Source: Escherichia phage JEP8
Strand: one strand, 5' to 3'
Length of the DNA: 64,000 bases
Sequence record: MT764208.1
Both the position numbers and the translations under genes were made by a program. Position 1 is the first letter of the stretch. Each line of letters opens with the position of its first letter. Below, one piece after another: positions 8,801 to 40,176 of the stretch. Below the pieces are notes generated by a model. That model searched no databases. It was not told the DNA's origin and saw only the letters and a list, made by a program, of their open reading frames with translations.

Positions 8801-10387
8801 ATGAAAACTACCAAAGAACTGATGGAAAAATGGTCCCCGCTGCTGGAGAACGAAAAACTGCCGGAAATCGCAACTGCGTCTAAGCAGAAACTGGTTGCTA
8901 AAATTCTGGAATCTCAGGAAGCGGATTTTGCTGTAGACCCGATCTATAAGGATGAAAAAGTTGTTGAAGCATTCGGTGGCTTTATCGCAGAAGCCGAAGT
9001 TGCTGGCGACCACGGTTATGACGCATCTAATATCGCGGCTGGTCAGACTACCGGTGCAATCACCAACGTAGGTCCGGCTGTTATCGGTATGGTTCGCCGT
9101 GCTATCCCTAACCTGATTGCATTTGATATTTGTGGTGTTCAGCCGATGAGCACTCCGACTAGCCAGATCTTTGCAATCCGTTCTGTATACGGTGGCGATC
9201 CGCTGAAATCTGGTGCTCGCGAAGCATTCCATCCGATGTATGCACCTGATGCGTTCCATAGCTCTCTTGCTGCTAAAGAGGCAACTGTAGGTTCACCAAC
9301 TGGTACTGCATTCGCTAAACTAACTCTTTCCCAGGCTATCGCTGCTGGTGATATCGTATATCACACCTTCGCAGAAACTGGTATTGCTTATCTGCAAAAC
9401 GTAACTGGTGATTCTGTAACACCACAGAAAGTAGGTAGCGAATCCGAAGATGAAGTAGTAATGAAGCTGATTGAAGAAGGTAAATTGGCTGAAATCGCTT
9501 TCGGTATGGCTACTTCCATTGCCGAAATTCAGGAAGGCTTTAACGGTTCCAGCAATAACCCGTGGGCTGAAATGTCAATGCGTATTGACAAACAGGTTGT
9601 TGAAGCGAAATCTCGCCAACTGAAAGCCCGTTATTCTATCGAAGTTGCGCAGGATCTGCGTGCTGTACACGGTATGGATGCTGATGCCGAACTGAATGCT
9701 ATCCTGGCTAACGAAGTTCTGCTGGAAATCAACCGTGAAATCGTTGACGTTATCAACTTTACCGCTCAGGTTGGTAAAACTGGTATGACTCAGACCGTTG
9801 GTTCTAAAGCTGGTGTATTTGACCTGCAAGACCCGATCGATACTCGCGGTGCTCGTTGGGCTGGTGAATCCTTCAAATCTCTGATCTACCAGATCGACAA
9901 AGAAGCTGCTGAAATCGCTCGTCAGACTGGTCGCGGTGCGGGTAACTTTGTTATCGCTTCCCGTAACGTTGTAAACATTCTGGCTTCTGCTGATCAGGGT
10001 ATCAGTCTTGCTATGCAGGGTGCTGCAAAAGGTCTGAATACCGACACCACTAAAGCTGTTTTCGCTGGTGTTCTGGCTGGTAAGTACAAAGTGTTCATCG
10101 ACCAGTATGCTCGTCAAGACTACTTCACCGTAGGTTACAAAGGCGACAACGAAATGGATGCTGGTATCTACTATGCTCCGTATGTTGCTCTGACTCCGCT
10201 GCGTGCAACTGACCCGCAGTCTTTCCACCCGGTTCTGGGCTTCAAGACTCGCTATGGCATCGGCATTAACCCGTTTGCAGACAGCAAATCCCAGGCACCG
10301 TCCGCTCGCATCACCTCCGGTATGTTGAGCAAAGACAGCGTAGGTAAAAACGCATACTTCCGTCGTGTATGGGTTAAAGGTTGCTAA
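8801..10387 (+). CDS. 23: major capsid protein (gp23-like)
   Basis: 528 aa; near-colinear match to T4 gp23 (…MVRRAIPNLIAFDICGVQPM…YFTVGYKG…GKNAYFRRV…). Confidence 0.97.
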   Translation: MKTTKELMEKWSPLLENEKLPEIATASKQKLVAKILESQEADFAVDPIYKDEKVVEAFGGFIAEAEVAGDHGYDASNIAAGQTTGAITNVGPAVIGMVRRAIPNLIAFDICGVQPMSTPTSQIFAIRSVYGGDPLKSGAREAFHPMYAPDAFHSSLAAKEATVGSPTGTAFAKLTLSQAIAAGDIVYHTFAETGIAYLQNVTGDSVTPQKVGSESEDEVVMKLIEEGKLAEIAFGMATSIAEIQEGFNGSSNNPWAEMSMRIDKQVVEAKSRQLKARYSIEVAQDLRAVHGMDADAELNAILANEVLLEINREIVDVINFTAQVGKTGMTQTVGSKAGVFDLQDPIDTRGARWAGESFKSLIYQIDKEAAEIARQTGRGAGNFVIASRNVVNILASADQGISLAMQGAAKGLNTDTTKAVFAGVLAGKYKVFIDQYARQDYFTVGYKGDNEMDAGIYYAPYVALTPLRATDPQSFHPVLGFKTRYGIGINPFADSKSQAPSARITSGMLSKDSVGKNAYFRRVWVKGC

Positions 10388-10470
10388 TATAAGCCATTCC
10401 TGAAAACTCCGGTCGGGTGCAATACCCGACTTATCATAAACCTTATGACAGTGTAAAGTGTTAATTCCAA

Positions 10471-10502
10471 AGGGAAGACTCGAAAGGGTCTTCCCTTTTT
10501 GC
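10471..10502 (+). terminator. rho-independent terminator after gene 23
   Basis: 9-bp stem AGGGAAGAC/GTCTTCCCT followed by TTTTT. Confidence 0.7.
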
Positions 10503-10885
10503 GTATTATAACCAGTTATAAATAAGGTTGCAAGCCTATATTCTATTGTGAGCGAAAATAGATACACACAACAAAGACAGGAAGATGCAGAACATCGGTG
10601 GGTTGCTAGCCTAAATCCGGTGGCTATGATATGTGATTTCTTTTGATGCTGGATTTATTAAAACACAACAAACAATTCCACCAATTTTCGTAGTAACTGC
10701 ATGGCAAAGGGACCAATGAATGAAATGAGCGTTCATGTTGATATTGGGTCGGATAGATTTGGTAGATATACAGATCTGGTGTATGCCGACCTTTTTATGA
10801 CATTCCAGCGTGACGCTAGCGGTAATTTTTGGTTTTGGTACGCTGTTCCCTGAATTAACCCCAAATTCTCCATAAGGAGGAATGC

Positions 10886-11038
10886 ATGAGTAAGAAAGAA
10901 AACAGCTATGTTATGACTCGTAAGGAATACAACGAATTGATGTTAGCATTAGCTTATGCAATTATTCGTTCTGATCATGCAATTAATCTGGTAAACAAAG
11001 TTAACCGTAGCGTTGATAATGTTTCTAGGAAGAAGTAA
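10886..11038 (+). CDS. hypothetical small protein (50 aa)
   Basis: ORF MSKKENSYVMTRKEY… preceded by a strong RBS AAGGAGG; not in ORF track (below 60 aa); coordinates approximate. Confidence 0.3.
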   Translation: MSKKENSYVMTRKEYNELMLALAYAIIRSDHAINLVNKVNRSVDNVSRKK

Positions 11039-11048
11039 GTTTATTTTG

Positions 11049-11076
11049 GAATCCTTCGGATTCCTTTTTCTTTTTG
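11049..11076 (+). terminator. rho-independent terminator upstream of gene 24
   Basis: GGAATCC-ttc-GGATTCC followed by TTTTTCTTTTT. Confidence 0.65.
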
Positions 11077-11084
11077 TATAAATA
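11077..11084 (+). promoter_or_regulatory. T4-type late promoter TATAAATA upstream of gene 24
   Basis: exact TATAAATA about 38 nt upstream of the gene 24 ATG. Confidence 0.6.
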
Positions 11085-11121
11085 TGATATATCCATTAAG
11101 GCAAATACAGGATTCATAAAC

Positions 11122-12363
11122 ATGACTCATATTTTTACTGAACTGTTGCGGGAATCTACTTCCTCAGTAGCTAACCAGACAGCGCGACCGCAACTATTAT
11201 CATTAACTCGCGCGGTAAACAACCTGATTTTCTCTGATCTGGTAGCAATCCAGCCAACGGATCAACCAGTATCTGCATTGTACGGCCTACGTTATCTTAA
11301 TCGTGATGGTCAGATGACTTTCCGAACTGCTACAACCTACGGTGGCGCGGCTGGTGATCGCACAGAGATTGAAGAGTTTTCAAAAGAAAAATCTTATGAC
11401 GAAGGCGCACTGTTCAAATCAGACGATGTTGTATACGAAGTTGTGACCGCTGGTACAGTCGGTGAAGATGCCGAAACTCCAGAAGCTGCAATCTTTAAAG
11501 GCGTAATGACAAACAAAATTCGTTTCTATAGCGATTGTGCATCGGTAGAATACTTTGAAGATAAAAACACCGAAATTTCGTCTACCTCTATGCAGTTTGA
11601 TAAATGGCAGGTTAATGTAGGTTCTCGTAAACTGAAAACCTCATTCACGACCGAATTGATGCAGGATCTTGAGGCAAGCCAAATCAACTCTGAAAACTCT
11701 GTAATTGATCTTCTGGCTACTGTTGCTTCCGAAGAGATCAACAAAGATATTATTCAGAAGTTGATCACTGTATCATCTCGCTATAAAATTAAAGGGATCA
11801 CCCCTGATGGCGTACTTTCTCTCGTTAGCGTTAAGGATGCACCAACACAAGCGCGTGAACTTTACCGCTATGCTTGCGAAATGAGCAATCAAATGTTGCG
11901 GACTTCCTCCTTTGCTGGTACATACGTTTTGGCGTCTTCTCGCGTGGTTGGCCTCCTGCAATCTACCGGATGGATGGAAGAAACCGACAATGCTCTAAGC
12001 GAAGGTCGTCTACGTTGCGGTCTGGAAGTGTACGCAGACACGACGACACCTTTCGATTATATGCTCGTTGGTTGTAAGCACATGATCGGTGATATGGAGA
12101 GTGTAGGTTCTCTGTTCTACTCCCCATATACAGAAGCCGACGGCGCTGGCGCGTATAAGAGCGTAATTGACCCTAATAGCTTCCAGCATCATGTAGCTAT
12201 TATGAATCGTTATTCACTCTCTGTCAACCCATACACATCAAAAGTTGATCAGGAAGAACACCAGGTCATCAAGGGTGACGATTGGGGTAAAATGGCTGGA
12301 CGTTCAGAAATGTCCTACATTTTAGGAATCGAACTGCCACCGCTTGAGATTGACAACGCTTAA
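11122..12363 (+). CDS. 24: head vertex protein (gp24-like)
   Basis: start placed at the internal ATG (MTHIFTELLRES…) that aligns with the T4 gp24 N-terminus; gp23 paralog. Confidence 0.9.
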   Translation: MTHIFTELLRESTSSVANQTARPQLLSLTRAVNNLIFSDLVAIQPTDQPVSALYGLRYLNRDGQMTFRTATTYGGAAGDRTEIEEFSKEKSYDEGALFKSDDVVYEVVTAGTVGEDAETPEAAIFKGVMTNKIRFYSDCASVEYFEDKNTEISSTSMQFDKWQVNVGSRKLKTSFTTELMQDLEASQINSENSVIDLLATVASEEINKDIIQKLITVSSRYKIKGITPDGVLSLVSVKDAPTQARELYRYACEMSNQMLRTSSFAGTYVLASSRVVGLLQSTGWMEETDNALSEGRLRCGLEVYADTTTPFDYMLVGCKHMIGDMESVGSLFYSPYTEADGAGAYKSVIDPNSFQHHVAIMNRYSLSVNPYTSKVDQEEHQVIKGDDWGKMAGRSEMSYILGIELPPLEIDNA

Positions 12364-12951
12364 CTAAATATCTAACCAAGACAAGTCAGATCCGCCCAAG
12401 ATTTTTTCGACGGCGGATCTATTTTCTTGATGATATAAGTTAAAACATGGTATCCCATGTCTACGGGCAACATAAACAGCAATTCTAGTTCCTCCAGAAA
12501 CAATCCCATTAACTTCTTTCGCCCAAAATAACACACAATCTACAGGATCATCAAGTGTCTCACCTAAGACTTGAGCAACATTTCTAGAAAACAGATTTTG
12601 CATGTATAACGGTATAGAACGAGGATTATCATAAACGTGTTCTAATTCATCCATCGCCAGATTTTTTTGTTCTAAGGTTTGCCATGCAATCACATCATGA
12701 CCGTTATGCTTATGGTCGTAAAACTTCCAATTTGGAATGAAAATTTTTCTATAATCTGGATCGTAATACTTCATGAAAGCATTGTCCATACCGTAAGCCC
12801 CTCCAGAATGCGCTACAACGCGATTTTCTGACAATACCCTCCCAATGGTACTAGCCATTATCAAAATGTCGCTAGGCGCTTTTCTAGAGCCGATTAAAGC
12901 ACATCTACGAAGTGGTTTTACTCCAAATAGATCTTGTAACTGGTCAAACAT
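12364..12951 (-). CDS. SLOG/DprA-Smf-like Rossmann-fold protein (hypothetical)
   Basis: 195 aa; GSRKAP…HSGGAYGMDNA and …GGTRIA… resemble the GxR…SGGAxGxD signature of SLOG/DprA-like domains; call is motif-level only. Confidence 0.4.
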   Translation of the reverse strand: MFDQLQDLFGVKPLRRCALIGSRKAPSDILIMASTIGRVLSENRVVAHSGGAYGMDNAFMKYYDPDYRKIFIPNWKFYDHKHNGHDVIAWQTLEQKNLAMDELEHVYDNPRSIPLYMQNLFSRNVAQVLGETLDDPVDCVLFWAKEVNGIVSGGTRIAVYVARRHGIPCFNLYHQENRSAVEKILGGSDLSWLDI

Positions 12952-13104
12952 AATATTTCCTCCATAGAAAGCAATATCATACTACAAGTTAATAACAAAT
13001 ACAAGTATCCGCGTAGCGGAAGCGAGCACAGCGAGCAATAAAAACACTTCCAGTAATTGATTAATAAATGTTCGAAACAAATTTTTATTATTCTATAAGA
13101 TAAG

Positions 13105-13130
13105 TCTTCGTTTTGATCATAATTTAATCA
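13105..13130. repeat. 26-bp direct repeat copy 1 (TCTTCGTTTTGATCATAATTTAATCA)
   Basis: exact copy recurs at about 13254-13279 in the same intergenic region. Confidence 0.8.
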
Positions 13131-13253
13131 TACATGTAAAAACTACACAAAAGGATATCGCTTCGCGAACTCCTACGGAGTATAACATTTGTGTTACAAT
13201 ATGTAGTGATTAATAATTAACCAAAGATACATTTTCTATGTTCTAAAGATCTT

Positions 13254-13279
13254 TCTTCGTTTTGATCATAATTTAATCA
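13254..13279. repeat. 26-bp direct repeat copy 2
   Basis: identical to copy at 13105-13130. Confidence 0.8.
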
Positions 13280-13333
13280 AACAGTATTAATATTGTGCAC
13301 ATGTAAACTAAAATTATGTCAATAATAGATACG

Positions 13334-13358
13334 AAAAAGCCGCCCCGAAGGACGGCTA
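13334..13358 (-). terminator. rho-independent terminator (minus strand) after ORF 13366-13803
   Basis: AGCCGCCCC-gaag-GACGGCT hairpin with an A-run on the plus side, giving a U-run on minus-strand RNA. Confidence 0.55.
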
Positions 13359-13365
13359 ATGTTAA

Positions 13366-13803
13366 TTATTTGTTGATAACGATCTGATTTCGGCGAATGG
13401 TAACATTACTCTTAGAGATGATCAGATCATCCGGCACTACGTTAGTTTTGTATGGTTGGAAGCGAACAAGCATCTGATTGCGTTTAGACCCTTCCTTAAT
13501 CTTGATTTCCATCTGGATATTGTTGCCTACGTGAGCAACCGCAATTTCACCTTTATTCTCATAGACCCACTTGTTGGTAACGTCTCCAGCAAAAGCCTTA
13601 ATAACTTGCAATGCTTCGTCGTATGCGGTAGAGCTGTGAACTTTCAGAAGTCCAGCCGTAGCAAGACGGGAGCAGGTGATCGCCGGAGATTGCCAAACAT
13701 CAACATTAATTTGCTCAATCAGAGTAACACCGCCCTGATCAACTGCTTTGAATGCTTCGAACATTGCCTTTTTCATTGCTACGTGGTTTTTACGGAATTT
13801 CAT
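13366..13803 (-). CDS. hypothetical protein (145 aa)
   Basis: ORF with RBS GAGGTG upstream; no recognised motif; the antisense track ORF 13456-13809 is judged spurious. Confidence 0.4.
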   Translation of the reverse strand: MKFRKNHVAMKKAMFEAFKAVDQGGVTLIEQINVDVWQSPAITCSRLATAGLLKVHSSTAYDEALQVIKAFAGDVTNKWVYENKGEIAVAHVGNNIQMEIKIKEGSKRNQMLVRFQPYKTNVVPDDLIISKSNVTIRRNQIVINK

Positions 13804-13849
13804 AATTAGTCACCTCTATTGATTAGTTATTCAGAATATTAATTACAAA

Positions 13850-14125
13850 TCAGGACATTGCCCGTTTGAATGCGTCCATTATAACAGTGTTATTTGGCTT
13901 GTCAACACGTTTTTGAACTTTATTTTTAAATTTTTTGTTGATGTGGTGTTTACGATAAACAACCTTTTCACGGCTGGCGTAAGCCTCGCGTGCATCTTTT
14001 ACCATCAACCATGCCTTAGCCGCATCTTGTCCGCTGATCCCGCCAATCTTCTTAGCAATATCAACAAAATTAAGACCGTGGTCTTCGCGTAGCATGTAAA
14101 CCATTAACGCTGTTTTCTTGTCCAT
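13850..14125 (-). CDS. hypothetical protein (about 92 aa)
   Basis: start placed at internal ATG (MDKKTALMVYML…) that overlaps the stop of the upstream small ORF (TGATG coupling). Confidence 0.35.
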   Translation of the reverse strand: MDKKTALMVYMLREDHGLNFVDIAKKIGGISGQDAAKAWLMVKDAREAYASREKVVYRKHHINKKFKNKVQKRVDKPNNTVIMDAFKRAMS

Positions 14126-14322
14126 CACTTCGCCCCATTGACGATTAACAGGATAGTGATCAGTACCGGAAACTGGATCATGACAGTACCAATAAACCGG
14201 ATAAACGCATTTTCTGACTTCCACACATGACATGCGACTAGCTGATAGACCATTGTTGCAACCAAAGCCAGAAAATACATCTCGATTGGTGTTTCTTTGA
14301 TCAATCGTACAATCTCATTCAT
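14125..14322 (-). CDS. hypothetical small membrane protein (65 aa)
   Basis: hydrophobic segments (…MYFLALVATMVYQLV…VLITILLIV…); RBS GAGGTG upstream. Confidence 0.35.
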   Translation of the reverse strand: MNEIVRLIKETPIEMYFLALVATMVYQLVACHVWKSENAFIRFIGTVMIQFPVLITILLIVNGAK

Positions 14323-14481
14323 ACTTCACCTCATACATTCATAAACACAACAACGAATAGGACAGTAACAGTTATTAAAGCCATTTTCAACCCCATATTC
14401 ATAATATTTTCTTCGCCTCACTATGACAGTAGCATGTCGATGCGTGCCATTATAGGCATCTAAATCGCTCTGTCAAGCACT

Positions 14482-14513
14482 AAAAACAAAAAAAGCCACC
14501 CCGAAGGATGGCT
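14482..14513 (-). terminator. rho-independent terminator (minus strand) after hoc
   Basis: AGCCACCCC-gaag-GATGGCT hairpin flanked by a long A-run on the plus side. Confidence 0.6.
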
Positions 14514-14524
14514 GATAGATTTCA

Positions 14525-15727
14525 TTAATCACGAATGCGTAGAACTCGCTCTAACGTATCTCGGTCCAGTTTATGTAACTCTTTGGAATGATACATGAAA
14601 CCATTGCGAGATTCCATGCAAGTGCAATCACTATATTTTTCTTCCGCTGCCGCGATTGTCTCCAGATCTTTGGCGTACTTGCTGGTAGAATAAACTTCTC
14701 GGTCACGCCACTCTAACCCAGCCTCATTGAATTTAACAATCTCGTCAAATACCCACCATCCAATGTAGATAAATGAAGTTTTGCGCCACGGGATCGGGTG
14801 TACGTAACGAAACATTTTAACAACTTCCATTGAACATTTTCTACTTGTACTTGTTGCAACTTCTACTGTTTCATTTTCGATCTGTTGATATAGTTTAGCA
14901 ACACACCAGAATTTGGCTGTGTCATCGTAAGTAGCACTCTCTTTGAACAGATGACCGTCTGGAGTGATAGAAAATCCTTCCTGTGCTTCGCCGACCTCAT
15001 TACCGATCAGAGTCGGTGACAGTTGCCCTTCGCGCTGCAAATACCAGTTATGTTTGATCGTCAATTCAGGCATACCGCTAGAATCGCCTACAATGTCCTC
15101 TGACACAACATAATTAAGTAAGATCTCATTACCTAGTGCCACGGTCTTTGATTCCACCACATCCTGTTCTACGTTCATTGTTGCCAGCATGATTTTAGTC
15201 GATGCGCTATTGGCTGAATCTTCCGACTCACCCCACACTTTTACAGTATACACGCCGTTTTTATCTGCTGTAAATTTTTGGATTGTAATATCCTGTTTTG
15301 TGTCTATAACTTCTTCGCCCTTACTCCAACTATAATGTAGTTCATAGTTGTCTGATGGAGTCTTCCCACCAGAAAAATTTACTGTTGCATGTAATTCTAC
15401 GTCTGTTTGTGATGATACGTAGAAATGCTGCGGTTCGGTGATATTTACGATTAATTCCGCTTCTTCCATGAGGAAAACTTCAGATTCTACTGATGTCGTC
15501 GTATCGGTATCTTGTACCGTTACTTTATAGCTACCCGCATTTTCACTTGTTGCGCCTTCTACAGTTAGCGTAGCTGTGTTATTTTCATGCGGTTGGTCGT
15601 CTTTTGTCCATGTATATGTCAAATTGCTGGGTAATGGTTCGTCACCATCTACAGTCGCCGTTAAGGTGAAACCATCGCCAGCAAGAAAACATCTTTTGTC
15701 AGATTTAATTGATACTGTGAAAGCCAT
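14525..15727 (-). CDS. hoc: outer capsid decoration protein Hoc-like (Ig-like repeats)
   Basis: 400 aa; repetitive Ig-like N-terminal region; C-terminal …YVHPIPWRKTSFIYIGWWVFDEIVK…ESRNGFMYHSK matches the T4 Hoc capsid-binding C-terminus. Confidence 0.85.
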   Translation of the reverse strand: MAFTVSIKSDKRCFLAGDGFTLTATVDGDEPLPSNLTYTWTKDDQPHENNTATLTVEGATSENAGSYKVTVQDTDTTTSVESEVFLMEEAELIVNITEPQHFYVSSQTDVELHATVNFSGGKTPSDNYELHYSWSKGEEVIDTKQDITIQKFTADKNGVYTVKVWGESEDSANSASTKIMLATMNVEQDVVESKTVALGNEILLNYVVSEDIVGDSSGMPELTIKHNWYLQREGQLSPTLIGNEVGEAQEGFSITPDGHLFKESATYDDTAKFWCVAKLYQQIENETVEVATSTSRKCSMEVVKMFRYVHPIPWRKTSFIYIGWWVFDEIVKFNEAGLEWRDREVYSTSKYAKDLETIAAAEEKYSDCTCMESRNGFMYHSKELHKLDRDTLERVLRIRD

Positions 15728-15896
15728 ATAAAGCCACTCCCATCGAAAATCCGAATTTAATTAATTGAAATAGTTGATTGTCATCAACCAGATAACCATT
15801 GCGAGATTCCAATACATGAGTATTAGAATAGTGATGCAACGAGGCCGAAATAGTATCGATCTCGTCTGGGTATTTGTTCTGTTTGATGTAATACAT
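15705..15896 (-). CDS. hypothetical small ORF with Hoc-C-terminus-like ESRNGY motif
   Basis: 63-aa track ORF overlapping the hoc start; contains …HVLESRNGYLVDD… similar to the Hoc C-terminal ESRNGFMYH; may be a remnant rather than a gene. Confidence 0.2.
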   Translation of the reverse strand: MYYIKQNKYPDEIDTISASLHHYSNTHVLESRNGYLVDDNQLFQLIKFGFSMGVALYGFHSIN

Positions 15897-15992
15897 TGAT
15901 TTTGTTAGACATGTAGTATCCTCTTTTTAATTGCATAACGGAACTACAATTAAAATTATAACAAATATTTCACAACTTTTATCACCCAAAAA

Positions 15993-16718
15993 TTACTTGA
16001 GTGTGTGGAATTGGCTATGTTTAGTCTCTCGCACCTTGACAGACCCATCGCGTTTGATATAATAGATCAGTGACTTGAGGGTGTCGTGTACATACGCGTG
16101 CGGGAAACGCTCTGGATACTTCTTCCAATCTGGAGTATTAACGATCCAGTCGAAAATCCACCACGGGCAGGAGTAGTAACCACGACCGCCACCGATCAAG
16201 CAAATGGTCGGACGGAAGCCAGTAAGATCGCAAAATGAATCAGTGTCATGTGATGGGGAACGATGTTCTGCTTCGTCAGAGAAAATGTTTGCTACCGGAG
16301 ATTTCACTTTAACTTCCGGTGCTTCTTCAACATCTGACTTAACTTCTTCGACCACTGGTTCAACTGCTGGAGATTCTTCTTTTGTTTCTTCAATGACGAT
16401 CTCAGTTTCTTTCATTGCTTCAACCAGAGACGGGTCAACTTCGTCGAATACCACTTTATCATCTGCGGTGTCTGCTGCCAGAATAAGATCGTTAATACTG
16501 GTTCCTTCTGCCGGAGTTTCTTCTTCCATTTCGGAAGCCAGTTTAGTTAATTCGGTTTCTACGAACTCGATCATGTTCTCTAGTGATAAAGTCTTTTTGA
16601 CCTTAATATCAAATTGTTTTGCGTAGTCAGCTAATTCTGTTTTAGCTGTTTTCTGTGCTTCTTTGTCGTCGGACGCCGCAATAGCGCGGAGTTCTTCGAA
16701 ATATTCTTTATCAAACAT
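15993..16718 (-). CDS. inh: Inh-like protein (prohead protease inhibitor-like) sharing the Hoc C-terminal motif
   Basis: 241 aa, acidic middle; C-terminal …CPWWIFDWIVNTPDWKKYPERFPHAYVHD… shares a WW[IV]FD motif with Hoc; position next to hoc as in T4. Confidence 0.55.
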   Translation of the reverse strand: MFDKEYFEELRAIAASDDKEAQKTAKTELADYAKQFDIKVKKTLSLENMIEFVETELTKLASEMEEETPAEGTSINDLILAADTADDKVVFDEVDPSLVEAMKETEIVIEETKEESPAVEPVVEEVKSDVEEAPEVKVKSPVANIFSDEAEHRSPSHDTDSFCDLTGFRPTICLIGGGRGYYSCPWWIFDWIVNTPDWKKYPERFPHAYVHDTLKSLIYYIKRDGSVKVRETKHSQFHTLK

Positions 16719-16744
16719 GTTATTCTCCTGATTGGGGGTGTTTG

Positions 16745-16752
16745 TATAAATA
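16745..16752 (+). promoter_or_regulatory. T4-type late promoter TATAAATA upstream of uvsW
   Basis: exact TATAAATA about 37 nt upstream of the uvsW ATG. Confidence 0.55.
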
Positions 16753-16788
16753 TTTGTATACTGTATTTATTGAGTGAGGCTATTCGCT

Positions 16789-18291
16789 ATGCAAGATATT
16801 AAAATTCACTTTCTGAACTACTCCCATGTTCAAATTGAATGTAGCGATTCAATTTTATTAGAAATGCGAGATTATTTTAGTTTTGAAGTCGAGGGAGCGC
16901 GGTTTCAAAAAAGATTTAAGTATGGTGGATGGGATGGGCGTATTCGTCTTTTAGATTACAACGGAAAGCTGCCAATCGGCCTAACTAAAACCGTGGGAAT
17001 CTTCGCTAAAAATATGGGCTATAGCGTATGGGTAGATCCTCGCTTATTCGAAAAAGAACAAGTTACAGAAGAAGAAATTACAAAATGGTGTAATGACTTA
17101 GAATTATATTCCGGTGATAACAGGATCACCCCGCATTGGTATCAATCAAAGGCCGTCTTTGAAGGTATTCATCATAAACGCCGTATGTTAGTTTTGCCTA
17201 CGTCCGCTGGTAAATCTGCGATTGCTTGTATGTTGTCTCGTTGGTACTTAGAGAACTACGAAGGGAAAGTGTTGATCATCGTTCCTACCACGTCGCTAGT
17301 GCTGCAAATGCGTGATGACTTTGTTGATTATCGCCAGTTTCCTTATGAAGCAATTCATACTATCATGAGCGGTACTAGTAAACACGTAGGTGATCGCCTG
17401 ATCGTTGTTAGTACGTGGCAATCTGCATGTAAACAACCTCGTGAGTGGTTCCAACAATTCGGGATGGTTATTGTTGACGAATGTCACAAGGCCACTGCTA
17501 AAAACCTGCTAAACATCGTTACTGATATGGATCATTGCCAATTTAAGATCGGCATGACTGGTTCCCCTCGTGACGGGAAAGCTAACATGATGCAGTATGT
17601 CGGGCTTTTCGGTGATATTTCTAAGATCGTGAGTATTGACCGCCTGATGGAAGAAGGGCAGGTGACAAAACTGAAAATTAACTGTCTTTTCCTTCGTTAT
17701 ACCGATGAGGAATGTAGCGCGGTTAAGGGGAGAGAATATGCGGAAGAGATCAAGTATATTACATCTAACCCACGACGAAATAAGTTTGCTTGCAATTTGG
17801 CGCTAAAACTCGCTAAGAAGGGCGAAAACGTATTCCTGATGTTCCGCAATACTAAGCACGGAAAACTTATGTATGACGCGTTACAGAAGGTACACGACAA
17901 GGTTTATTATATTGACGGTGGAGTTAAGACAGAAGAACGTGATGAATTTAAGAAAATGGCGGAGGGTGACACCGGGATCATTTGTGTTGCGTCTTATGGT
18001 GTGTTCTCTACTGGTGTTTCAATTAAGAATTTGCACCATGTTATTTTCGGTCATCCAGTGAAGGAATCAACTATCGTTCGTCAGAGTATCGGTCGTGCAT
18101 TGCGTAAACATGGTTCTAAGGATATTGCTACCGTTTGGGATCTTATAGATCATCTGGCGGTGAAGACAAAGAGCAAGAATGCTAAGAAACAGTTTAGTCA
18201 CCTTAATTATGCTCTTAAACATGCCCTTGAAAGAATAAAAATTTACAACACCGATCGATTCGAATATGTCACGAAAACCATCGAGATTTAA
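16789..18291 (+). CDS. uvsW: UvsW RNA-DNA/DNA helicase
   Basis: start placed at MQDIKIHF… aligning with the T4 UvsW N-terminus; SF2 helicase motifs (LPTSAGKS, DECH). Confidence 0.93.
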   Translation: MQDIKIHFLNYSHVQIECSDSILLEMRDYFSFEVEGARFQKRFKYGGWDGRIRLLDYNGKLPIGLTKTVGIFAKNMGYSVWVDPRLFEKEQVTEEEITKWCNDLELYSGDNRITPHWYQSKAVFEGIHHKRRMLVLPTSAGKSAIACMLSRWYLENYEGKVLIIVPTTSLVLQMRDDFVDYRQFPYEAIHTIMSGTSKHVGDRLIVVSTWQSACKQPREWFQQFGMVIVDECHKATAKNLLNIVTDMDHCQFKIGMTGSPRDGKANMMQYVGLFGDISKIVSIDRLMEEGQVTKLKINCLFLRYTDEECSAVKGREYAEEIKYITSNPRRNKFACNLALKLAKKGENVFLMFRNTKHGKLMYDALQKVHDKVYYIDGGVKTEERDEFKKMAEGDTGIICVASYGVFSTGVSIKNLHHVIFGHPVKESTIVRQSIGRALRKHGSKDIATVWDLIDHLAVKTKSKNAKKQFSHLNYALKHALERIKIYNTDRFEYVTKTIEI

Positions 18292-37744: not shown

Positions 37745-38221
37745 TTATTTTTCTTGATGCTCGCGCTCGTACTTTTCGAAATAAAATTCTACTGGCTGGT
37801 CATGAATTGACAGCAAGCCAAAGCGTTTAGCCGCTCGCAATCCCATATTGCGCTGAATGTACTTCTGGAAGTTCTCGCGTATACACTTACGCCAGTATTC
37901 TAAGCCCATACAGCTTTTATAAAGATTGCATTGCACACACGCCGGATTCATGTTATCAAGTATATCATGCTCCGGTTTATGCATTCCTACGACCTTATAC
38001 TTCCACAATCCATCATCATTACGGGCAATTCGTCCATTTTCATCATAGACTACCTTTGAGCGTCGCAATACTGGTTTGATGTGGTCTGCGTGCCAGCGAT
38101 CCCCTAGTTCCTCGCCACAATAGGCACAACGTCCACCGTATTTCATTTTCAGGATCTGGCGTTGCTCTTTCTTTGACAATTTTTTAGGTTTAGGGGCTTT
38201 CGCCCCTTCATTATCACACAT
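37745..38221 (-). mobile_element. free-standing HNH endonuclease (putative homing endonuclease) gene
   Basis: 158 aa; HNH signature …GRCAYCGEEL…WHADHIKPV…DNMNPACVQCN…; sits between DNA ligase and the hyperplastic small-gene region. Confidence 0.7.
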
Positions 38222-39710
38222 CGAATACCTCTTTTACTGTATTTGCAGTGGTCTTGTCGTAGCGAATACGTTTGATGATTGGGAGAAATAAAGAGAACTC
38301 CGGTTCATCTTCTTTACGTGATTTGCTGCGAATGTACCCGTTGCATGTCATCTCAATGACTTTTCCAATCAGGTTATGACGGTCAGCCCATAACATTTCT
38401 CGGTCGAGTTCATTTCGACTATCGAACGGAATTACACGTTCGATACCATCATCACCTTTTTCGGTTGTGGTGTCGGTCAATCCCGATCCGGTGTTAGTCA
38501 TCATTCGTCCGCACGCACTACGGACAGTAAAACCGCCTACCTTATTAGGATCTTTACTATGCGGATATACATCAACAATTTCCGCGTCGAAGTCAATCAC
38601 TTCTTTAAATTTAACCTGATCTTTACTGCGACGATCTTCAAATACACCATGCAGATTTTTAAGGATAATACCTTCTAATCCCATGTTTACATAGCGATGA
38701 TATACTTCGCGAGCTTCATCGAGATTGTTAACTACGGTATTTTCGATTATCTGAACACGAGGATCGTTAAGTTCTTCAACAATCTGTTTTAGTTCTTCGA
38801 ATCGATCTTTATACTGCTTCGTTGCTTTCTCGTTACCGTAGTACACATCACGGTCGATAACATCCCAGACAGTGTAAACAATACATTGGGCTTCTTCTTT
38901 TGGAATAGTTCCTTTCAGTGATTTGTTGAGGATACCATTTCCGGTCTGACGATCTGCAACAACGGATTCTTTCACTGCTTCCGCTACTGGCGTTAATGGC
39001 ATTTCCTCTTCTTCAAATATCCATGACAGAGTACCATCATAAACGCTCTCAACGAAGTTCTGCGCTGGTGTTTGCGAAAGGGTAGGCATATATACCAATT
39101 CGCCATCTAGAACAATTCCACGGCCTCGTAGACGCTCTAAAACCGCAAACAAATCATCAAGCCCTTGATAGGTATTACCTGAGCGGGTATAGATTGCTAA
39201 TGTTTCCCCGTCAATATCAGCCATACCACGAGCGCCATCGCTTTTAAGTTGTGCATACGCCGGATACTTGATATTAGCAATAGTCTTATCAGAACATGAC
39301 GATGCAAGGTGGCACGGTTGCTGAGGGATCAGTTTCTTCCATACCTTGTTTGCAGTGGTAGCGGAACAGCCGCATTCCAGATCACGATTCAGGACCATCA
39401 TTGCAACTTTAGCATCATCCTCTGACAAGCAAGTCAGAGTATCGGTAACTAGTTGTAATGCTGCATTACCAGTTACTTGACGCGTGGCAAGTTTATTTTT
39501 AAAGACCTGTAATGCACCGGATAAAGACAATACAGACGAATAGCGAGATGGTTTATCGTATTTCTTTACGCCAAACGTAACCTGTTTGCAATATGCCAGA
39601 TAAAAGCATTCTTTCAGCGTTTCATTGCTCGCGGATTCTTTCAGAATCTTTTCTTTCAGCGATGTTTTGTCTGTTGCTGCAAGCTGATTAATGATATTAA
39701 GAATTGACAT
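38214..39710 (-). CDS. 30: ATP-dependent DNA ligase (gp30-like)
   Basis: start placed at ATG after GAGGTG; adenylation motif KSDGARG and colinear similarity to T4 DNA ligase. Confidence 0.93.
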   Translation of the reverse strand: MSILNIINQLAATDKTSLKEKILKESASNETLKECFYLAYCKQVTFGVKKYDKPSRYSSVLSLSGALQVFKNKLATRQVTGNAALQLVTDTLTCLSEDDAKVAMMVLNRDLECGCSATTANKVWKKLIPQQPCHLASSCSDKTIANIKYPAYAQLKSDGARGMADIDGETLAIYTRSGNTYQGLDDLFAVLERLRGRGIVLDGELVYMPTLSQTPAQNFVESVYDGTLSWIFEEEEMPLTPVAEAVKESVVADRQTGNGILNKSLKGTIPKEEAQCIVYTVWDVIDRDVYYGNEKATKQYKDRFEELKQIVEELNDPRVQIIENTVVNNLDEAREVYHRYVNMGLEGIILKNLHGVFEDRRSKDQVKFKEVIDFDAEIVDVYPHSKDPNKVGGFTVRSACGRMMTNTGSGLTDTTTEKGDDGIERVIPFDSRNELDREMLWADRHNLIGKVIEMTCNGYIRSKSRKEDEPEFSLFLPIIKRIRYDKTTANTVKEVFDV

Positions 39711-40176
39711 TTTCACCTCGTTTTGTTAAACGTTCACGAATATCATTGAGGATACTACAAAATTCCGATTCAGTCAATATAGTCTTTAACGGATCAGTTC
39801 CACCTATACTATGACGCAATTTCTTATTTCCGGTAGCGAGTAATGCTTTACAAAATTCTGGGTTATTCCGTGCCATCGTAACAAATGCCAGATGTACCAG
39901 TCTGTAATAATGCTCACTCATTCGATGAATCGGGCGACCCTGAAAATATAACATGTGATTCTCTATCTTTTCGGTCCTTCCGGTTCTTTTTGCTTTGCCA
40001 CCGTGCATCAAAAAGATTTCTCTTTGTCTCTGAGGGTTCTTAAATCTTAGCCCCTGTAAAAATCCTTCTGTGCTGTTAATATCGCAACCAAATAGACGGA
40101 ATGGTCTTTTATTGAAATTACTCAATTCACCCGATGGATAAGGTCCACCCGCATAGATATCAATTTCAGAAGTCAT
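39697..40176 (-). CDS. NADAR-domain (YbiA-like, DUF1768) protein
   Basis: 159 aa; …GELSNFNKRPFRLFGCDINSTEGFLQGLRFK… fits the NADAR signature; coordinates from ORF track. Confidence 0.6.
   Translation of the reverse strand: MTSEIDIYAGGPYPSGELSNFNKRPFRLFGCDINSTEGFLQGLRFKNPQRQREIFLMHGGKAKRTGRTEKIENHMLYFQGRPIHRMSEHYYRLVHLAFVTMARNNPEFCKALLATGNKKLRHSIGGTDPLKTILTESEFCSILNDIRERLTKRGENVNS

Follow-up and report, generated by a model that had tools for sequence, protein, structure and literature searches.

Bacterial DprA (Smf) proteins belong to the SLOG (Smf/DprA-LOG) superfamily of Rossmannoid proteins. In Helicobacter pylori DprA (HpDprA), the Rossmann domain binds single-stranded DNA (ssDNA) on its own, and Wang et al. 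proposed two signatures of the ssDNA-binding DprA domain, which they contrasted with the LOG motif PGGxGTxxE (PMC3950713). Motif 1, G-S/T/A-R (G50-R52 of HpDprA), belongs to the loop that follows the first Rossmann strand, and its R52 gates the pocket; motif 2, F/L/Y-x-x-R-N/D (F140-N144 of HpDprA), is part of the pocket helix, and its R143 and N144 hold the base that is inserted (PMC3950713). Among viruses, the family has been described computationally by Iyer et al. 2022 (PMC9503650). Literature searches brought up no experimental work on a DprA-like SLOG protein from a phage. Here we analyzed such a gene in a 64,000-nucleotide (nt) stretch of Escherichia phage JEP8 (record MT764208.1), hereafter called the window. 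Its 195-amino-acid (aa) product, the SLOG protein, is securely assigned to the DprA-like branch of the superfamily, as a member that stands alone and consists of a single domain.

The gene and the codons of its conserved pocket motifs are located as follows; the percentages give conservation in an alignment of 277 family members, including 36 fusion proteins.

12364-12951, minus strand: SLOG coding sequence, 195 aa, single-domain DprA-like protein of PHROG 768 (reading frame and profile match)
12959-12963, minus strand: Shine-Dalgarno sequence GGAGG, 7 nt 5' of the SLOG ATG (read off the sequence)
12883-12891, minus strand: DprA motif 1, G21-S22-R23 (G 97%, S 91%, R 96%)
12784-12807, minus strand: glycine-rich loop S49-G-G-A-x-G-x-D56, SGxAxGxD in DprA (S49 95%, G50 98%, A52 96%, G54 97%, D56 98%)
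12571-12594, minus strand: DprA motif 2 and a following Gln, L120-F-S-R123-N124-V-A-Q127 (L 83%, R 98%, N 96%, Q 96%)
12478-12495, minus strand: GGT loop at a helix N terminus, G153-G-T155-R-I-A158 (G153 98%, G154 97%, T155 98%, A158 96%)

An earlier note on this DNA had described a 195-aa open reading frame (ORF) with SLOG-like motifs whose stop codon abuts that of gene 24, and this is what we read. The ORF runs on the minus strand from the ATG at 12951 to the TAG at 12366-12364 behind its Shine-Dalgarno sequence, its translation contains IGSRKAPSD, HSGGAYGMDNA, AHSGGAYGMDNAF and SGGTRIAVY, and no nucleotide separates its TAG from the TAA of the convergent gene 24, which ends at 12363. It is a real gene and not a chance ORF, since its product matches PHROG 768 with an E value of 2e-60 (204.6 bits; residues 15-187 on profile positions 4-181 of 191). 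The window derives from a T4-like coliphage of the genus Krischvirus (RB49/phi1/JSE group), and over the whole of positions 10000-17000 it shares 98-99% identity with Escherichia phages E26, ELT3, kvi and KFS-EC (Krischvirus kfsec). Phage UPWr_E1 has a protein 100% identical to the SLOG protein, and JSE has one that is 99.5% identical. The KFS-EC orthologue (gp055, YP_010097189.1, in RefSeq NC_055757) is the same gene of the same family at the same position, immediately after a 1242-nt capsid vertex gene, and nothing material differs. It is annotated "DprA-like DNA recombination-mediator protein", which is the name of PHROG 768 and is an annotation by similarity. A DprA-like protein of Vibrio phage VP-1 belongs to the same PHROG 768 family.

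The family is a conserved accessory component of T4-like and other large lytic phages. Homologues were present in 1342 of 50,697 phage records, 1170 of them with at least 80% query coverage, and they come from phages of Klebsiella, Pseudomonas, Escherichia, Aeromonas, Vibrio, Acinetobacter and other hosts. An exhaustive hidden Markov model (HMM) search of 1.84 billion representatives returned 4315 cluster representatives at E<=1e-3. Present in about 2.6% of deposited phage genomes, the family ranks with the most frequent accessory genes of large lytic phages that are still uncharacterised, and its carriers include many therapeutic T4-like, Pakpuna- and Vequinta-like phages. The place of the gene in T4-like phages is where the head-gene block ends, as a rule directly downstream of rnlB.

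The predicted structure agrees with this classification. An AlphaFold2 (AF2) model built from a 33-sequence alignment had a mean predicted local distance difference test (pLDDT) score of 94.1 and a predicted template modeling (pTM) score of 0.89. Strands and helices fill residues 2-184 and there is no further Pfam match, indicating one domain. The model has a three-layer alpha/beta Rossmannoid fold and can be superposed on SLOG structures that have been solved. Foldseek ranked HpDprA first (E 9e-6); the other solved folds compared with the model (values in brackets) were the Moco carrier protein (12.0), TM1055 (11.8), YpsA (11.2), ShosA (11.2), LOG-type enzymes (about 10.4-11.0) and the ThsA SLOG domain with 3'-cyclic ADP-ribose (3'cADPR; 9.8). 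The nearest predicted viral structures were phage proteins of the same family, with template modeling (TM) scores of 0.7-0.8; among those with names, three carry DprA-type names and one is called 'Transposase'. Viral SLOG models of the YspA/DUF2493 clade reached only TM 0.40-0.47. All 33 aligned relatives matched Pfam DprA PF02481 (best E 4.6e-6) and almost no other family, and in Pfam neither the SLOG protein nor these relatives matched PF10686, DUF1273 (YpsA/YspA clade) or PF03641 (LOG). Clade HMMs and closest structure thus both place the protein outside the YpsA/YspA (cpYpsA) clade. Aligning the family profile with the single E. coli Smf sequence by hhalign recovered only the N-terminal 64 columns, at low probability. 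The SLOG/DprA-like Rossmann fold suggested in the earlier note was therefore borne out by PHROG 768, the AF2 model and Foldseek alike, and profile and structure comparisons assigned no rival fold.

Within this fold, the protein differs from bacterial DprA/Smf (H. pylori 4LJK/4LJR, Rhodopseudomonas palustris 3MAJ, Streptococcus pneumoniae 3UQZ) in several respects. It is about 20% identical to them and falls below the Pfam and TIGRFAM thresholds. At 195 aa it has neither the SAM nor the C-terminal winged-helix domain, the segment from strand 3 to the RN helix is rebuilt, Gln127 is its family's own, and Asn171 is largely conserved. It is encoded by a phage, outside any competence context, and has relatives fused to NADAR or DUF4326. 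The viral SLOG proteins of Iyer et al. (PMC9503650) share the superfamily, the fusion partners and a proposed NAD/ADP-ribose conflict arena; they are mostly YpsA-like, with small-molecule substrates proposed, whereas the present family is DprA-like by sequence, motifs and structure. LOG-type cytokinin riboside 5'-monophosphate phosphoribohydrolases and the ThsA SLOG domain are only 9-15% identical to it.

The loops that form the SLOG nucleotide pocket (GSR, SGGAxGxD and GGT) are 91-98% conserved in the family, and both DprA ssDNA motifs are present. The glycine-rich loop S49-D56 aligns to SGGALGVD of HpDprA and SGLARGID of E. coli Smf, and by eye the four motifs correspond to GSR, SGLARGID, FPRRNR and SGSLVTA of the latter protein. 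Gln127 (96%) is specific to the family and Asn171 is largely conserved (88%). The LOG motif PGGxGTxxE is missing: the sequence reads S-G-G-T-R-I-A, with the invariant Ala158 (96%) at the position of the LOG catalytic Glu. The whole DprA base-binding pocket (GSR, SGGAxGxD, LxxRN, GGT) is thus kept, and the LOG hydrolase signature is absent. We also considered the isoelectric point (pI) as a proxy for DNA binding and dropped it, as it did not discriminate: the value is 6.4 for the SLOG protein and 6.8 for the Rossmann domain of Smf.

The strongest functional evidence comes from domain fusions. Among the best 150 representatives, the SLOG domain was fused to NADAR (P0070, P0148, P0170), to DUF4326 (P0160) and to a complete RecJ (DHH-DHHA1-OB, P0161), and proteins of 1475-1488 aa combined the family domain with two further SLOG domains and NADAR. 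A search seeded with one fusion returned many NADAR-SLOG proteins (306-345 aa) and also NADAR-DUF4326-SLOG proteins (435-503 aa). The three fusion genes that were sampled lie on phage-like contigs, with no DarT-like gene nearby. We further surveyed the neighbors of the gene in 78 SLOG-bearing viral loci. A DUF4326-SLOG fusion was seen in viral loci as well, and NAMPT lies at most five genes from the SLOG gene in 10 of the 78, as it also does in Pakpunavirus PaoP5. Two giant phage proteins in IMG/VR also carry the SLOG domain (1446 aa, L087:3643-7983; 2858 aa, L050:55-8631). The shorter has a sub-threshold AlkB-like 2OG-Fe(II) match (28.5 versus 31.2 bits), which is a lead only; the remainder of both proteins gave no Pfam match.

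This phage has exactly one SLOG gene and one NADAR gene:

39697-40176, minus strand: gp30.3/AdfN-type NADAR gene, 159 aa (PF08010 Phage_30_3, E 1.2e-38)

The NADAR gene overlaps the start of a 500-aa ORF (38214-39716, minus strand), which we take to be DNA ligase from gene order. T4 gp30.3 (AdfN) is an ADP-ribosylglycohydrolase that acts on DNA, and it is both required and sufficient to overcome DarTG1 (PMC11257639). Because NADAR and the SLOG domain are fused in many other phage proteins, we infer that the product of 39697-40176 is a candidate functional partner of the SLOG protein.

We propose that the SLOG protein is a single-stranded nucleic-acid recognition module in ADP-ribose-linked counter-defence or repair, and we give this reading a probability of about 0.4. 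It is the most economical one because the pocket residues correspond to the DNA contacts of DprA, the fusion partners NADAR and RecJ both act on ssDNA, and NADAR counters DarT. The protein would be a binder and not a LOG-type N-glycosidase. A base or nucleotide moiety would be inserted into the DprA-type pocket, most likely from a single-stranded nucleic acid, as in DprA; an ADP-ribose-linked nucleotide would be an alternative ligand. For example, modified ssDNA might be recognized and held for the NADAR ADP-ribosylglycohydrolase, which in this phage would act as a separately encoded partner. A narrower version, in which the protein uses the DprA pocket to recognize bases of single-stranded phage DNA that carry ADP-ribose or another adduct and then hands them to NADAR or itself deals with adducts that NADAR cannot remove (e.g., thymidine-ADP-ribose of the DarT2 type), seems to us unlikely. 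If it were true, the SLOG protein would be the second, separable half of an anti-DarT module that elsewhere is one NADAR-(DUF4326)-SLOG polypeptide.

Several observations weigh against a nucleic-acid module of this kind. The pocket is also the generic SLOG nucleotide pocket, and a small-molecule ligand is equally compatible with its conservation. Similarity to DprA stays below the cutoffs of the established models, with 22.3 bits versus 29.6 for PF02481, over residues 15-60 only, and 14.4 bits versus 191 for TIGR00732, again over the N-terminal 45 residues. R156, the basic residue after GGT, is variable (R 35%, G 28%, A 22%), and the protein is mildly acidic, at pI 6.4 against a family median of 8-8.9. 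The SLOG and NADAR genes are 27 kb apart in the window. NADAR has no need of a SLOG partner, since T4 has the former and not the latter, and DUF4326, whose substrate is unknown, is also among the fusion partners.

The pocket could serve a soluble ligand instead. Iyer, Burroughs, Anantharaman and Aravind (2022) proposed that viral SLOG proteins bind or cleave cADPR-like molecules from host TIR or other NAD-consuming defences, having described viral SLOG fusions to Macro, NADAR and DUF4326 and predicted their role (PMC9503650). The protein would then be a sensor, sponge or degrader of an ADP-ribose-derived immune signal, a role made plausible by the recurrence of NAMPT, a NAD salvage enzyme, as a neighbor, and by the use of the same pocket for nucleotides in every SLOG family. 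Yet most viral SLOG proteins were assigned to the YpsA-like clade in that study (PMC9503650), and ours falls outside it, with TM scores of 0.40-0.47 to YspA-type models compared with 0.7-0.8 within its own family. In addition, the LOG catalytic Glu has become an invariant Ala, the pocket residues correspond one for one to the DNA-contacting residues of DprA, and the RecJ fusion points to DNA; we hold this role to be rather doubtful. The database name implies another function on DNA, that of a minimal DprA that coats ssDNA and loads UvsX or host RecA. DprA is indeed the closest solved fold, both ssDNA motifs are kept, and the Rossmann domain of HpDprA suffices for ssDNA binding (PMC3950713); moreover, uvsW and uvsY lie only a few kb from the SLOG gene, and one relative adjoins a DNA polymerase gene. 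However, the phage already has UvsX and a dedicated mediator, UvsY, the SAM and C-terminal domains of DprA are missing, and T4 does without the gene. Linkage to recombinase genes was not conserved in the 78 viral loci, and the recurrent partners are NADAR, DUF4326 and NAMPT and not recombination genes, making a mediator function improbable.

Weak matches to antitoxin models raise the possibility of an orphan mimic that replaces the labile ShosA or PsyrA upon host shut-off and so disarms ShosTA/PsyrTA abortive infection. The PADLOC models for PsyrA (E 4.2e-5) and ShosA (E 3.6e-4) match residues 15-61, and orphan antitoxin-like genes such as AdfN are known in phages. According to published work, ShosA does not bind ShosT but neutralises it by way of ssDNA binding, dimerisation and RecA. 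Nevertheless, the PADLOC matches are confined to the generic GSR...SGGAxGxD stretch and do not surpass the Pfam match to DprA. ShosA and PsyrA combine an N-terminal SAM domain with DprA and are encoded beside their toxins, ShosT (PRTase) and PsyrT; the present protein has no SAM domain, and its neighbors are gene 24 and a spacer. As ShosA requires SAM for stability and depends on dimerisation and RecA contact besides, and as 1342 phage records from many hosts are far more than expected for a mimic of two systems, we find this explanation harder still to accept. The least probable of those considered is that of an RNA-repair accessory that prepares or holds broken RNA for RNA ligase 2 (Rnl2). 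It draws on gene order: an rnlB-type ligase gene lies directly upstream of the SLOG gene, often overlapping it, in 18 of the 78 viral loci, in two settings, namely beside gene 24 and, in loci of the Slopekvirus type, at a distance from the head genes. The absence of Rnl2 from Krischvirus weakens this explanation, as the SLOG gene was kept while no Rnl2 homologue was found in the window or in the rest of KFS-EC. Furthermore, the linked loci all look T4-type, so that adjacency may be inherited gene order, and carriers that are not T4-like have no ligase neighbor.

The window holds no new entity, and the gene, the PHROG 768 family, the fold class and the fusion partners are already known from public annotation and the literature. 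Our analysis adds the placement of a viral SLOG family as DprA-like and not YpsA-like, the family-wide retention of both DprA ssDNA motifs, the synteny of rnlB, SLOG and gene 24 with its breakdown in Krischvirus, and a stand-alone AdfN-type NADAR in the same genome. The gene offers a cheap, testable link to DNA ADP-ribosylation defence. If the NADAR fusions reflect a shared function, the family would join the field of DNA ADP-ribosylation defence (DarTG) and its reversal by phages (AdfN), and an RB49-like phage, in which SLOG and NADAR are encoded by separate genes, would be a convenient genetic test system.

The surroundings of the SLOG gene in the window comprise the following features.

11074-12363, plus strand: gene 24, capsid vertex protein, convergent neighbor of the SLOG gene (Pfam Gp23 family, E 7.8e-88; PHROG major head protein)
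12952-13365, no strand: 414-nt spacer 5' of the SLOG gene, without an ORF of at least 40 aa
13366-13803, minus strand: orf145 (PHROG 15652, unknown function, as sole match)
13850-14233, minus strand: DUF2774 ORF, 127 aa, homologue of T4 24.3 (DUF2774, E 1.5e-28; 38% identity to 24.3)
14125-14322, minus strand: 65-aa ORF (PHROG 16558; its middle part is hydrophobic and resembles a membrane helix by eye)

The true start of gene 24 is probably the ATG at 11122. In T4, gene 24 is followed by rnlB, 24.2, 24.3, hoc and inh, and there is no SLOG gene; in the window the order is gene 24, SLOG, the spacer, orf145, the DUF2774 ORF, the 65-aa ORF, hoc and inh. Gelderlandvirus, Klebsiella T4-like phages and others have the order hoc, a 24.3-like gene, two further genes, rnlB and SLOG, and then gene 24. 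Klebsiella phage phi1_146055, Salmonella phage STP4-a (Gelderlandvirus) and 10 IMG/VR loci are examples with rnlB on one side of the SLOG gene and gene 24 on the other; in such loci the SLOG gene often overlaps the stop codon of rnlB. Slopekvirus-type loci carry rnl-(HNH)-SLOG apart from the head genes, where it precedes NAMPT by four genes. More distant T4-like contigs also have their SLOG gene close to the end of the gp23 block. In some of these (L079-L083), an IMPDH/GMP-reductase-family gene directly precedes the SLOG gene, which is two genes from gp23 (e.g., L080:1130-2293; PF00478, E 4.9e-69). Outside T4-like synteny we found no conserved partner, and Pfam scans of the neighbors in distant viral loci were mostly empty.

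Neither the window nor the other 100 kb of KFS-EC gave a match to rnlB/Rnl2 in tblastn searches with T4 RnlB and three other Rnl2 proteins. An rnlB pseudogene in the 414-nt spacer was rejected, as the same four queries returned nothing there. Krischvirus has thus lost rnlB and keeps the SLOG gene and the 24.3 homologue. Since the SLOG gene coexists with rnlB in other T4-like genera, it is an old resident of the slot beside gene 24, normally alongside rnlB. The earlier note had viewed it as an accessory replacement of rnlB and the small 24.x genes. That view is correct only in part. T4 does have those genes at this place, but both genes are present in other genera, rnlB is missing from Krischvirus altogether, and a homologue of 24.3 persists at 13850-14233. 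The comparison of the interval between gene 24 and hoc thus revealed an rnlB-SLOG-gene 24 synteny that is broken in Krischvirus.

Two proteins bear the name 'RNA ligase' in this context. The Pantoea phage Phynn homologue (P0007, 193 aa), 48% identical to the SLOG protein, is so named in NCBI, which is probably a mis-annotation carried over from the adjoining rnlB position. KFS-EC gp015 (154 aa), in another region of the genome, has the same label and no likeness to Rnl2.

The ORFs at 13366-14322, put forward earlier as possible functional partners, showed no sign of linkage to the SLOG gene. They are set apart from it by the 414-nt spacer and by a terminator-like hairpin that directly follows the stop codon of orf145 (13357-13338, minus strand). 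orf145 lies roughly at the place of rnlB in related genera. It matched no Pfam, NCBIfam or PADLOC family, was seen only in Krischvirus loci among the 78, and gave a single-sequence AF2 model that is unusable, with a pLDDT of 44. The true start of the DUF2774 ORF is probably internal, KFS-EC having a 91-aa annotation.

The spacer presumably holds the SLOG promoter. A consensus scan found no sigma-70 site on its SLOG strand, and no TATAAATA late promoter was seen in it by eye. It contains no known RNA, as no family reached the gathering score when the whole window was scanned with Rfam. A 38-nt direct repeat occurs in it at 13097-13134 and 13246-13283 (89% identical, 149 nt apart), and its 22-nt core, CGTTTTGATCATAATTTAATCA, is found exactly twice in the window versus 0 expected. 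The repeats may be a pair of promoter/stem-loop cassettes of the PeSL type described for RB49/phi1 (PMC2839356). Two perfect sigma-70 consensus promoters (TTGACA, 16 nt, TATAAT) are present on the minus strand of the hoc-proximal block, at 14476-14449 and, within the DUF2774 ORF, at 13905-13878. Both are consistent with the early-promoter cassettes of RB49-like phages.

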